Shown here: one piece after another, positions 21,544 to 49,581 of the stretch | Position numbering within the stretch: the first letter of the stretch is position 1 | Layout: each line of letters begins with the position of its first letter | Assembly (NCBI RefSeq): GCF_000743755.1 | Contig: NW_014569507.1 | Span: 1 to 49,764 of the forward strand | Direction of reading: 5' to 3' | DNA: 49,764 nucleotides | Source of the DNA: Blastocystis sp. subtype 4 | Lineage: Eukaryota | Translations under genes and position numbers: made by a program | The notes under the pieces: generated by a model | What the model was told of the DNA's origin: nothing | The model's input: the letters and a program-made list of their open reading frames with translations, nothing else | The model's database searches: none

Positions 21544-21551
21544 AACAAACA
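21544..21551 (-). terminator. GU-rich polyadenylation element TGTTTGTT
   Basis: Perfect match 3 nt after the RRP43 TGA. Confidence 0.75.
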
Positions 21552-43218: not shown

Positions 43219-45371
43219 TTAGTCGCTGCTTGAATCTGAAGAGGAAGACTCAACCTTCTTAGGAGCAGGCTTAGGAACAGGCTTCTCATCTTCTGAGGAC
43301 GAGGAGTCAGATGAAGATGATTCGATTTTCTTAGGAGCAGGCTTGGGCACAGGCTTCTCATCTTCTGATGAGGATGAATCAGAAGAGGAAGATTCAACCT
43401 TAGGAGCAGGTTTAGGAGCGGGCTTCTCATCTTCTGAAGACGAGGAATCAGATGAAGACACTTCCTTCTTCACAGGCACAGGAGCAGGCTTTTCATCCTC
43501 AGAAGAATCAGATGAGGAGGAAGACACCACCTTCTTGACTGGCTTCTTCACCACAGGTTCCACATCGGAATCCGAATCTGAAGACTCTACCTTCTTTACA
43601 GGCTTCTTCACGTCGGAATCTGAATCCGAATCCGAATCCACCTTCTTTGAAGGCTTCTCATCAGAATCAGCAGGTTCAGGAGATTCATCACCACGCTGTT
43701 CTTTGGCGTTGTCCAACAACAGATCGAAATCAACCTGAGCAAGTTGGATGGACTTAATCTACATGATTAATGGAATGACAAAAAACCGACAGAATTCGCC
43801 AACTGGTCGATGTTCACCTTCTCAGGTAGATGCTTCAAGAAAGCATACAGCTCATTTGCCGACATATCAGTCACCTTATCAGAGTAACTACCAATGACCA
43901 AAATACCCTTAAAAAATACTATTTCAAAATACCACAGGAAATCTTCACCAAACCGAATCCACCTTCCAACAACAGAATATCCCACAATCTCTTTGCCTTT
44001 TCAAAGTTCACACACCGAGTAAACAGTGAGCACATCCAGTCTCGGAGGATCACAGACGAATCAATCTTGGACTCAGAGAAATAGCTGGCTACCTCACTCA
44101 CCTCTTCACCAAGTGCCGACTCGAAGGCAGTACAGTAATCCTTGAATTCCATCTTCCGATCTGGATCCATCACTACGACCATGTACTCTTGGAAGAGATT
44201 TACTGTTGAAGTAAAAGCACTCTCCTGATCTTGGAACTGGAGCAACATGGCAGCCACATAGTTCAAACCATCAAAGTAACCAATGTCAGGACGATATGCA
44301 ACCCACGTCTCGAGCAGCTCACGTAGAGACTAGGAATGATAAGGTTGAATCGATAAAACCTTCTCGAAGTCAGGAGTGTGGAAGGAAGCTTCATTAGGAT
44401 ACACTTCTACAAATCATGAGAAATTGACCATTGATACCCTTAACAGCGTTAGGAATCTCCAGTATCGTCTTTTCATTACCTTCAGTAGGAGCATCAGGAT
44501 TCTGTCCATCATCATCCACCTCCAATCTAACCTTCTCAAACTTTTCACGAAGACCCTTTCCATTCTTCATTGTCACACGATACAGCTTTGCTGCAATACG
44601 GGTTTCCATACCAATCATAGTACTCCAACTCTATACCTCAAATCTATTTCAATTCATAACCATGATACGTGTGTAAGGAAGCATTCCTTCATAGCAAACC
44701 TTCTTAGCTAATGCACCATCACGCTTGTACTTCCAGTTAGGAACCACCTTCTTTGAGAATTCAATATTGTCATTCTCTCGTTTTTTAATACGACGCTGTT
44801 CCAGCCAACTATCGATCAATTCTCATACATGGAAATACCCTTGGAAACCTCCTGACTTCTTTGGCTTCTCGTCCTCTTCAGATTCCTCTTCCTCTTCAGA
44901 GGATTCCTTCTTGGAAGTTTTCTTAGACTTCTCCTCGGATTCGGAATCAGAATCAGTTTCAGACACATTCTTCTTAGCCTTCTTAGGCTTGCTGGCAGTC
45001 TTCTTAGCAGCCTTGGAGTCCGAAGAGTCAGAGTCTGAAGAAGATTCATCTTTCTTTGTAGGCTTCTTATCCGATTCAGAGTCAGAAGAGTCTGATGATG
45101 TTTCAGCCTTCTTTGCAGCAGGGGCCTTTTTGTCTGAATCGCTGTCGGAAGAAGAGTCGTCAGACTTATTGTTACTGGCAGCGGCAACCTTAGGAGGTTC
45201 CGAGTCAGATGAATCCGATGAGGTTTCTACCTTCTTAGCGGCAGGAGCTGGCTTCACGTCAGAATCGCTATCAGATGAAGAACTCAGATCCTTCTTGGAA
45301 GTAGCAATAGGTTTCTTATCAACCTCTGAGTCAGAGCTAGATGTTGTTGTAGAATCAGTATCAGAAGGCAT
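43219..45371 (-). CDS. TBC (Rab-GAP fold) protein, TBC1D12/14-like, flanked by Ser/Asp/Lys-rich regions; catalytic fingers absent
   Basis: LRELLETWVAYRPDIGYFDGLNYVAAMLL and DWMCSLFTRCVNFEKAKRLWDILLLEG. Joined by short introns to both low-complexity ends. Confidence 0.85.
43222..43640 (-). repeat. Coding tandem repeat of about 69-72 nt encoding (V/I)ESSSSDSSSSEDEKP(A/V)PKPAPKK
   Basis: Several near-identical units containing ggcttctcatcttctga / ggagcaggctt, more degenerate toward 43640. Confidence 0.85.
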
Positions 45372-45740
45372 TTGTCTACTAATGTGGTTACAACAAATTC
45401 ATAAACTAATAAATAACTCTCCTACAAGGTATAAAACAAAGTACAGTTGAACAATCTGGACTAAATACGATGATCATGACACAACAGCTATTGGGACATA
45501 GCATCCTATATGATCCCTATTTCCCTTTTATTTTTCGTTAAATTGACTAATTTTGGGACACATCTTTATTATATGTTTTCTTTCTAATCCGCGTTCAATT
45601 ACTCCTTTAAATTATTGCAAAGGTATATACATACAATATAACACTCTCTCTTAAAATGAGAAGATATTATATATGAGACACAAACAATTCGACACCACTG
45701 TGCACTAAGAGAAGTTAATATGTTGAAAACAAACAGCAGA

Positions 45741-46535: not shown

Positions 46536-47519
46536 ATGTCGCTTGAAAAGAATCTAGGTATGGGTATCATTCTGTCAGATGATGTGTAGCGATGTTTCGA
46601 ATAACAATCTTTCAAATGTATTGTCTGTTCTTTCTTTTGTTTCTATCTTTAGGAAGTTTTTTCAATTTATAGGAATGATTTGTAGCAAGGGAATTAGTAC
46701 CGCAGAGTCGAATAGGCTTTTTTGTCTACCGTTTCTTCATTTACGATGAGTAGTGGATTATAGGAGTTTCAAATATAGACTCTTCACATATGTTGTTGCT
46801 GGATACCTTATATATGCTATGCGATCACTGGAACTACTTTATGGATGTTATAAAACTATGTCAATTCTATTTACTATTGGCATTTCCTGTATTCTAACCA
46901 AGTTGTTCCTTTCACTCTTTTTCTCTCCTTCGTATGCTGTTATTATGTATCTATCCTCCGAATTTGCGATTTATTGGAGTTGGGATTAAAGATTTCCTCC
47001 ATTCTAGAATCGATTCCTTCTGTTCCTTCTTCCAGTTATCCAGTTTTTAGTTCAATGCGGATATCTGAAAAGATAGCAAACGGAATCCTCCTTCTATTTC
47101 TCGCTCTTTCATGTAGTATTCGAGGTCTGGTTGAAGGTATTGTTGGAATCTACTTAGGTCTTTTCATTCATTATTTATGTACAGAAGAACATATACTAAT
47201 TCCATTTCCAAAGATATTCACATCGATTCTCCTTGTAAGTGATTTGCTTCTATTTCATTTGTAGAAGATAGTAGCGGCATTATTTGAGGACAGACAACGT
47301 TACAGGTCCTTAAGCGTTGATAGCAACACTCCTCTACGATTTGATCAAGAGTGGGATGATGACACATATGTTAGTGACGAAAATATTACACAGTTGATGG
47401 TACCCATGATATGATTCAATAACAAATAGAATATGGGGTTTTCAAGAGTTGAATGTATGAGGGCTTTGCAGCAATGTGATAATGATTTAAATCGAGCAGT
47501 AGAAAGATTAATATCCTAA
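46536..47519 (+). CDS. Rhomboid-like pseudoprotease with C-terminal UBA domain (UBAC2/Dsc2-like)
   Basis: Several TM exons. The terminal UBA domain reads DENITQLMNMGFSRVECMRALQQCDNDLNRAVERL. Confidence 0.75.
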
Positions 47520-47531
47520 CTTTACTGTTTA

Positions 47532-47539
47532 AACAAACA
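47532..47539 (-). terminator. GU-rich polyadenylation element TGTTTGTT
   Basis: Perfect match 4 nt after the in-frame T at 47544. Confidence 0.8.
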
Positions 47540-47543
47540 AATG

Positions 47544-48370
47544 AATCATTCTTCTTCTCCTCAGCAGTCTTTTCGGGTACCTCAGACTTGTCCTCAACCT
47601 TCTTATCAGTTGTCATCTGCTTGAACTGGGTTGAGAGAATGAGGAGGAAACTAAGTAACAACGTACTATTGATGCCTACTAGGACAATCCGCAACCAATC
47701 AGACAAAGAATGATATCTCTCTGATTCTTGGCAATACGCTTATAGAAAAGACGAGGCTCCACCTTCTTTCCCTAAATGAAAATCATCCAACGAAGCTACC
47801 TCACTAATCATGGAATGATGATCTGAAATAGAACGAATCATCTTGTAAAGAGTAGCTAGAAGATAATATAAGAACAAATAAACTACTGAAAAGATTGTAC
47901 ATACAGAACATCATGAAGAATACAAAAGGAAGGGCGTACTGGAAGATTTTCTATAATTAATAAGAAAGAAAGTAGCTACATTAGCATACCCTCTCTTTAA
48001 CATATCAGGAAGAGGCATTGTCATAATGAACAAAGCCACGAAGACAATGAGGTCCAAAAGGCCTACAACAAGCATATTGAAACTAAAGGCATTCAGATTA
48101 TCGCGAATAAATGTATTGGGAGACACCATTTCAAGAATAAAGTGAACACCAAAATCATGACAAAAATGTGTGAAGAATGGAACAATAGAAAAACTACTAA
48201 ATGAACCCTTCAGATCATGACAGTCCGTTTGTAAACAACAGTAGAGATCCAGTGGAATCGACGAAGACAATGAAATGAAACCATTAGTTTGGAAAAGAGG
48301 AGTATTACATGAAACTGGGTCTAGATAATTGAGAGAACAGAATTTAGTTTGTAACACAGAATTTGTAACT
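47544..48370 (-). CDS. Hypothetical multi-pass membrane protein ending in KKND; stop probably completed by poly(A); 5' end unresolved
   Basis: Several hydrophobic exons. The last exon reads ...EKTAEEKKND, then an in-frame T at 47544, CATT and a perfect TGTTTGTT. Confidence 0.65.
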
Positions 48371-48516: not shown

Positions 48517-49581
48517 ATGATAAGAGAAAGAAAGAAGAATGTAAAATCACGCAAACAATATGATGAGAATGGAATGATGATTATTGCGGGTCTCTTCTAT
48601 GATGTTGAAAAGAAACGATATTTTCCTATTTCTATGAAATCAGATCCCGTATGTGATAAAAATGATAAAAGAGAAATGAAGAAAGAAGTGTTGTTTAAGA
48701 AAGTACCTGTAGTTGAGTTACTATTGAATCGTAAATATAGATTGAATAGTAGAAGAATGGATGAAATGAATGAGTACTTGAGATGGCGAAAGCGTATTTG
48801 GAAGTCAGTTGAAGTTCCTAAAGAAGTGAAATGCATGAATATTAGTATGAAATGGTTATATTTGGGATATCGTGAATGTGTGTTACGATATGAAGTGAGT
48901 GTTTGTGGATTGGGTAATATAAGTGAAGTAGTATATTCATGTATAAGAGGAAATGAAATCATTGATGTGAATGGAGATTGTATATTAGTGACTACTGAAA
49001 GAGGAGTTCGTGTTTTGGATTTGTTTCGAGAGAAAGAGTTATCATTATGTGGTGAATATGTATGTGTGAATCGTTACGAATATGAAGGAAGAAAGTATAT
49101 AATAATTGGTGGAGAACGAGTATGTTTATGGAGTGAAGAAGGATTGAGTGATTTGAAAGTAACTAGTAAGTGTATGAATGTGTTTGTAAATGAGAATGAA
49201 GTGATATTAGGCTTTCGTGATGGTAGTGTAATGTGTTTGAATATGAAAGAAAGAAAACTGAATCGAATTGTGAAGTTGGAATGTTGTATCGTAAGTCTGA
49301 ATATAAATGGAACTCTATTGGGTGTGTGTGATATGAAAGGAAATTGTATGTTATGTGAGAAATTGAATGATCGAGAATGGATGAAAGTGAGGTTGAATAT
49401 GAAAGTTGAGAAAGTGTGTTGTATGAATGCTAGTGTGTTATGTGTGTGTGAAGGAAGTGTTTATGAAGTGAATAGAAAGGGAGAAGTATTGAATAGAATT
49501 GAAAGAGTGAAGTATGCAAGTATTCTGAATGAAGTATGTGTATTGGTGAATAGTGAAGGTGAAATGAGATGGAGTATATGA
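48517..49581 (+). CDS. Intronless divergent WD40/beta-propeller protein with a DCAF4/WDR21-like N-terminal motif
   Basis: IAGLFYDVEKKRYFPI resembles the DCAF4 PGFYFDPEKKRYF motif. Blade-like segments include VILGFRDGSVMCLN and GVCDMKGNCMLCE. Confidence 0.65.
   Translation: MIRERKKNVKSRKQYDENGMMIIAGLFYDVEKKRYFPISMKSDPVCDKNDKREMKKEVLFKKVPVVELLLNRKYRLNSRRMDEMNEYLRWRKRIWKSVEVPKEVKCMNISMKWLYLGYRECVLRYEVSVCGLGNISEVVYSCIRGNEIIDVNGDCILVTTERGVRVLDLFREKELSLCGEYVCVNRYEYEGRKYIIIGGERVCLWSEEGLSDLKVTSKCMNVFVNENEVILGFRDGSVMCLNMKERKLNRIVKLECCIVSLNINGTLLGVCDMKGNCMLCEKLNDREWMKVRLNMKVEKVCCMNASVLCVCEGSVYEVNRKGEVLNRIERVKYASILNEVCVLVNSEGEMRWSI

Follow-up and report, generated by a model that had tools for sequence, protein, structure and literature searches.

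In the window, the whole analysed stretch of 49,764 nucleotides from Blastocystis sp. subtype 4 (ST4), a minus-strand gene probably acquires both its stop codon and a predicted ER-retrieval signal through polyadenylation of its mRNA. According to this reading, to which we give a probability of about 0.85 from sequence comparison, the mRNA would be cleaved after T47544, 4 nt ahead of the element TGTTTGTT. The poly(A) tail would then add As to this templated T to create a UAA stop, leaving KKND as the free C-terminus of the protein and as a predicted COPI-binding retrieval signal. The elements of this 3' end are the following.

47545 to 47556, minus strand: KKND codons, predicted C-terminal dilysine (KKxx) signal, with K-4 and K-3 in 8/8 lineage representatives.
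47544, minus strand: predicted last transcribed base, T, the sole templated letter of UAA, placed from the 4-nt rule and the orthologs.
47532 to 47539, minus strand: downstream polyadenylation element, exact TGTTTGTT, 4 nt past the predicted cut (spacing rule of PMC4159000).
47416 to 47543, minus strand: genomic read-through of 42 codons and TGA, included in the database protein and likely an annotation artefact.
47520 to 47543, no strand assigned: 24-nt gap between both gene ends, with the minus-strand element and only three-mismatch candidates on the plus strand.

The arrangement described by the sequence-only reading, AAG AAG AAT GAT T followed by four nucleotides and TGTTTGTT, is indeed found at 47556-47532 of the minus strand. 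The four codons (47556-47545) encode KKND, the spacer 47543-47540 separates the in-frame T from the motif by exactly 4 nt, and genomic stops are absent ahead of the motif. The same reading had the genomic frame running on to 47416 and overlapping a convergent UBA gene, which proved correct: the frame remains open for 42 codons past KKND, up to a TGA at 47418-47416 (-), an extension that would cover the final 104 nt of that gene. The window carries 14 exact motifs, both strands counted, and with a Lys-Lys-x-x-T frequency of 8.5e-4 per position about 0.012 chance coincidences with them would be expected, for a pattern picked after the fact. An assembly or sequencing error at the KKND end was considered and rejected, since low-depth contigs from runs X3, X4 and X6 (one sample) span the site without any differing letter and three related loci (L001-L003) carry the identical 30 letters 3' of KKND. 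A 10-bp palindrome is located at 47526-47535, in the gap between the convergent gene ends. Elsewhere in the window, at the exact motifs at 21551 (-), 22621 (-) and 35754 (+), an in-frame TG or T ends an open frame, which has at least 100 codons at each of the first two and 37 at the third; these are candidate poly(A)-made stops.

Poly(A)-made stops are documented in Blastocystis. In ST7, Klimes et al. (2014, PMC4159000) located the motif exactly 4 nt past the point of poly(A) addition in 2,333 of 2,419 genes, which agrees with the cleavage distance given in the sequence-only reading, and counted 372 genes with such stops. The first examples described there are Rho/Rab GTPases, whose CXXX and Cys prenylation motifs emerge only with the corrected end. 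For ST1, the proportion of genes with poly(A)-made stops is given as 26% by Gentekaki et al. (2017, PMC5608401), where use of the mechanism in ST4 is presumed from overlapping gene models. The element is present in ST1, ST3 and ST4, with enrichment in ST4, and absent from tortoise isolates, according to Lind et al. (2025, PMC12129017), who also assign NMH and DL to ST3 and NandII and JDR to ST1. Furthermore, its mutation led to a 324-fold drop in reporter expression (Li et al. 2019, PMC6395660). Like the genes of Klimes and Gentekaki, the window gene displays a T, four free nucleotides and TGTTTGTT without a genomic stop, its database model is extended to the next in-frame stop, and correcting the end reveals a C-terminal signal that depends on its position. 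Whereas the GTPases carry prenylation motifs, the window gene, which belongs to ST4, encodes a membrane protein with a dilysine motif as its signal; moreover, unlike in the published cases, its orthologs template one, two or three of the stop letters. Since prenylation motifs made by poly(A) stops have already been published, the window gene adds a member rather than a new phenomenon: it is a further instance of a published mechanism, which is not itself new. A literature search combining Blastocystis with KKXX, BAP31 or dilysine, with subscription journals mostly outside its coverage, returned no report of this gene.

The gene is composed of five exons on the minus strand, separated by four GT-AG introns of 28-31 nt.

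47980 to 48129, minus strand: exon 1 of the BAP31-like gene, first hydrophobic segment, likely start ATG at 48129.
47887 to 47950, minus strand: exon 2, after a 29-nt GT-AG intron (47979-47951); the spliced protein P0002 agrees.
47800 to 47855, minus strand: exon 3, after a 31-nt intron (47886-47856); P0002 and the spacing in the X8 contig agree.
47680 to 47771, minus strand: exon 4, after a 28-nt intron (47799-47772); P0002 agrees.
47544 to 47650, minus strand: exon 5, charged tail to the predicted cleavage site, after a 29-nt intron (47679-47651); P0002 agrees.

An alternative ATG is present at 48075, and the segment ahead of this second Met is conserved among orthologs. The database protein P0002, encoded on a contig of 530 nt, follows the four-intron splicing exactly until 4 residues ahead of KKND; its divergent tail past that point is, we assume, translated sequencing adapter. 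The full read-through protein is identical to XP_014528967.1 (Blastocystis ST4 hypothetical protein JH06_0860, 198 aa). This database protein is likely an annotation error, and the product of the gene, with the predicted end, would be of 156 aa.

To compare C-termini across subtypes, as the sequence-only reading had proposed, 591 candidate stretches from a metagenome scan were examined, yielding at least 15 related loci. Among the 15 matches listed, 14 include the 3' end, and KKND followed by T is present in each of these. In eight loci (L004-L011) a genomic TAA directly follows KKND, and in the six others only T, 4 nt and the motif are found. The loci of lineage A (L001-L003) are of the same type as the window itself and do not constitute independent evidence. 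In lineage B (L004-L006), the genomic TAA is followed at a distance of four bases by a motif with one mismatch and at eight bases by an exact one; the two candidates are at +7 and +11. Lineage C (L007-L011) corresponds to ST1: it has the genomic TAA, and its motif is placed one base farther than in the window, which would put the cut behind TA. This lineage matches the ST1 proteins OAO16070.1 and KAK8833547.1, both ending at KKND; this is the end of the ST1 proteins P0074 and P0075. Lineage D (L012-L014), matched by the ST3 proteins, shows the T, the 4-nt spacer and the exact motif, with a genomic read-through of four residues. Four introns are modelled at matching positions in 13/13 complete loci (L007 and L015 are incomplete), and the spliced database protein P0032 equals the L006 model. 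Identities are 67% between A and D, 72% between B and C, and 47-54% across.

Database proteins present a similar picture. The terminal motif occurs in 33 of 91, seven of which stop there and 26 run on. All 26 read-through tails continue with S/F/L-x-V-C, the translation expected from T, 4 nt and TGTTTGT, thus keeping the codon register of the motif. The tails measure between 4 and 42 residues and show no conservation beyond x-x-V-C, and the dilysine motif is absent from the 7/7 read-through ends displayed. Lineage E, seen from protein evidence only, is 49-56% identical to the other lineages and has KKND and KKKD variants; its proteins P0047, P0048 and P0062-P0071 have tails starting with L-x-V-C or S-x-V-C. 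Three partial proteins (P0056, P0059 and P0091) end in KKND, near the window's lineage, or in KKNE, which suggests additional lineages with a genomic stop, although the end of P0056 may be a contig end. Since the genomic-stop orthologs end at KKND and the others keep the motif register, KKND appears to be the real terminus, as the sequence-only reading had proposed together with the poly(A)-completed UAA. Lineages A and D would need poly(A) to make this terminus, and E probably as well.

Transcript data were searched in contigs of eight runs, where a poly(A) junction was not seen. Runs X1, X3, X4 and X5 gave neither joints nor poly(A) loose ends, X2 and X7 gave short low-identity pieces elsewhere only, and X6 gave unspliced pieces; none of the runs recorded as RNA covers the window's stretch. 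Run X8 provided a 461-letter contig of the lineage D type with anchors 167 letters apart, versus 255 in the genome, which equals the spliced distance of the model. This contig stops 23 letters beyond the predicted cut, which fits a short poly(A) tail or a short read-through alike, and also a transcript ending 9 nt past the lineage-D genomic stop. Since no poly(A)-bearing read was seen, we only infer the cut after T47544 from the 4-nt rule and the orthologs.

The database models for ST4 and ST3 run on to the genomic stop. If they were correct, the transcript would extend to 47416, the protein would gain a partly hydrophobic tail and reach 198 aa, and the polyadenylation motif would be incidental. 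The 42 open codons past KKND, the agreement of the NCBI models from both subtypes and the lack of an observed poly(A) read speak for this possibility; two of these models come from a project that drew on RNA evidence but favoured models having stop codons. Against it, the tails vary in length with only the motif's own translation conserved, KKND is the terminus of those orthologs whose stop is genomic, and the 104-nt overlap with a convergent gene corresponds to an annotation error type known in ST4 (PMC5608401). We therefore consider the longer protein very improbable. It is no more credible that the gene uses an alternative polyadenylation switch, producing the ER form by cleavage at 47544 and a longer, signal-less isoform by cleavage near a second motif. 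Such a one-mismatch element does exist at 47428-47421 (-), 111 nt downstream of the main motif, with an in-frame T five bases ahead that would allow a longer frame ending in UAA. However, this second motif was seen in the window's lineage only (L001-L003), the exact motif sits upstream, one-mismatch octamers are frequent in AT-rich DNA, and only 6 of 2,645 ST7 clusters have two motif-linked sites within 5 nt (PMC4159000). We judge this switch the least probable of the readings considered.

The consequences of a shifted cut were simulated at 16 positions (47552-47537). A stop was generated at two of them only: 47544, giving KKND, and 47541, giving KKNDS with the lysines at -5/-4. The 14 other cuts, both 1-nt shifts included, led to a non-stop poly-lysine frame. 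A mis-cut by 1 nt in either direction would hence yield a non-stop message, not a template for a signal-less protein, and such messages would be treated as non-stop mRNA. Since 14 of 16 cuts remove the stop and not just the signal, a shifted cut is more likely to lose the mRNA or the protein than to mislocalise the protein, and the claim of the sequence-only reading that a shifted cleavage would remove the signal should be amended to a loss of the stop. Mis-cut messages probably exist, because minor motif spacings of 3 or 5 nt occur among ST7 ESTs (PMC4159000).

A dilysine signal is defined by Lys at -3 together with a second Lys at -4 or -5, counted from the free C-terminus (Jackson et al. 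2012, PMC3521961). Lysines at -3/-4 are present at the predicted end and in the genomic-stop orthologs, and K-4 and K-3 are found in 8/8 lineage representatives, with most of positions -20 to -11 variable. The window protein thus resembles KKxx COPI cargo in being a membrane protein with lysines at -3/-4 of its predicted free C-terminus and differs from it in that this C-terminus is predicted to arise through mRNA 3' processing. On these grounds, KKND may act as a COPI-binding retrieval signal conferring ER residence. Poly(A) could alternatively make the stop with KKND being no working signal, just the end of a Lys/Glu-rich tail, and ER residence depending on the membrane segments. In favour of this, K and E abound in the tail, K-9 and A-7 are as invariant as K-4 and K-3, and membership in the BAP31 family is a lead only. 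On the other hand, both lysines occupy the required -4/-3 positions in all eight representatives though -2/-1 vary (ND, KD, NE), and Blastocystis retains nearly all membrane-trafficking components (PMC5608401). A non-functional KKND therefore appears unlikely, while deserving more weight than the other alternatives.

The protein carrying this predicted signal is probably a short BAP31-like ER protein, unproven as a member of the family. It contains three hydrophobic segments (19-residue hydropathy means up to 2.7, 1.5 and 2.2) and a charged tail of about 30 residues. Structure models (pLDDT 53 and 64) show three long helices and a tail of low confidence. The nearest Atlas clusters for two orthologs are Bap31 (0.89 and 0.92), with Bap31 on 32% of cluster members, and several of these clusters are also short (126-153 aa). 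The Pfam Bap31 profile (PF05529) remained far below cut-off in the orthologs, with a best score of 10.7 bits versus 22.7 and E-values of 0.5-0.6 in 2 of 14 ortholog or exon-level queries; it was absent for the window's own protein, and the single exons tested gave no Pfam match. Foldseek returned nothing at E<=0.001. Weak ZorA/FcpA rows in PDB sequence searches were not accepted, nor were VIA-align matches, which are generic helical bundles only (best Z 11.3). In BAP31 and BAP29, three membrane segments are combined with a long coiled coil and a KKXX end (PMC2172754, PMC3742741). The window protein shares the three N-terminal hydrophobic segments and, given the predicted end, the C-terminal KKxx; unlike BAP31 with its long cytosolic coiled coil, it would have about 156 aa and a 30-residue tail.

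The neighbouring gene offers a comparison across the same short gap.

47430 to 47519, plus strand: last exon of the convergent UBA-domain gene (PF00627, E 2e-8), with TAA at 47517-47519.

The start of this exon was inferred from a GT-AG intron at 47400-47429. In each of the four sequenced lineages, the UBA gene is convergent with the target gene. Its window copy ends in a genomic TAA, and the plus-strand motif candidates there have three mismatches. In lineages B, C and D, compared through two loci each (L004/L006, L008/L010 and L012/L014), the best opposite-strand motif, with two mismatches, lies 4 bases after an in-frame T and upstream of any genomic stop. Since motif and in-frame T precede any genomic stop, the UBA gene of these lineages likely depends on a poly(A)-made stop. 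Two further open reading frames are found in this part of the window. The first, at 48517-49581 (+), is an intron-less frame of 354 codons that diverges from the target gene; it has a high content of V, C, E and N and no Pfam match. The second, at 44823-45398 (-), is of low complexity and rich in Ser, Asp and Lys, presumably resembling nucleolar SRP40/Nopp140-type proteins.

A tree of 10 rows, partial proteins left out and with a midpoint root only, groups A with D (89/90) and B with C (88/95), lineage E forming a long branch. Ahead of the predicted cut, three lineages (A, D and probably E) encode T alone, ST1 encodes TA, and in another lineage TAA is templated in full. For the UBA gene, the stop pattern is reversed. 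Tentatively, with somewhat less than an even chance in our estimate, the end of this orthologous gene shifted between genomic and poly(A)-made stops with KKxx kept fixed, and the protein is an unrecognised minimal BAP31. If the T-only state were ancestral among these subtypes, the ST1 side would have regained a hard-coded stop, and stop loss would be reversible. The two-gene junction would then, if this is true, provide a natural test of drift versus selection at poly(A)-made stops.

With the proposed end, database proteins of ST4 and ST3 are corrected in which a wrong terminus would conceal a trafficking signal, suggesting that many C-terminal signals are overlooked when Blastocystis proteomes are screened for them. 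To the prenylation motifs known as examples of poly(A)-made stops, it also adds a likely dilysine motif. Since a position-fixed signal marks the true terminus, the gene could serve as a clean cut-site marker in ST4 and ST3, and furthermore as a marker of stop-codon loss or regain between subtypes.
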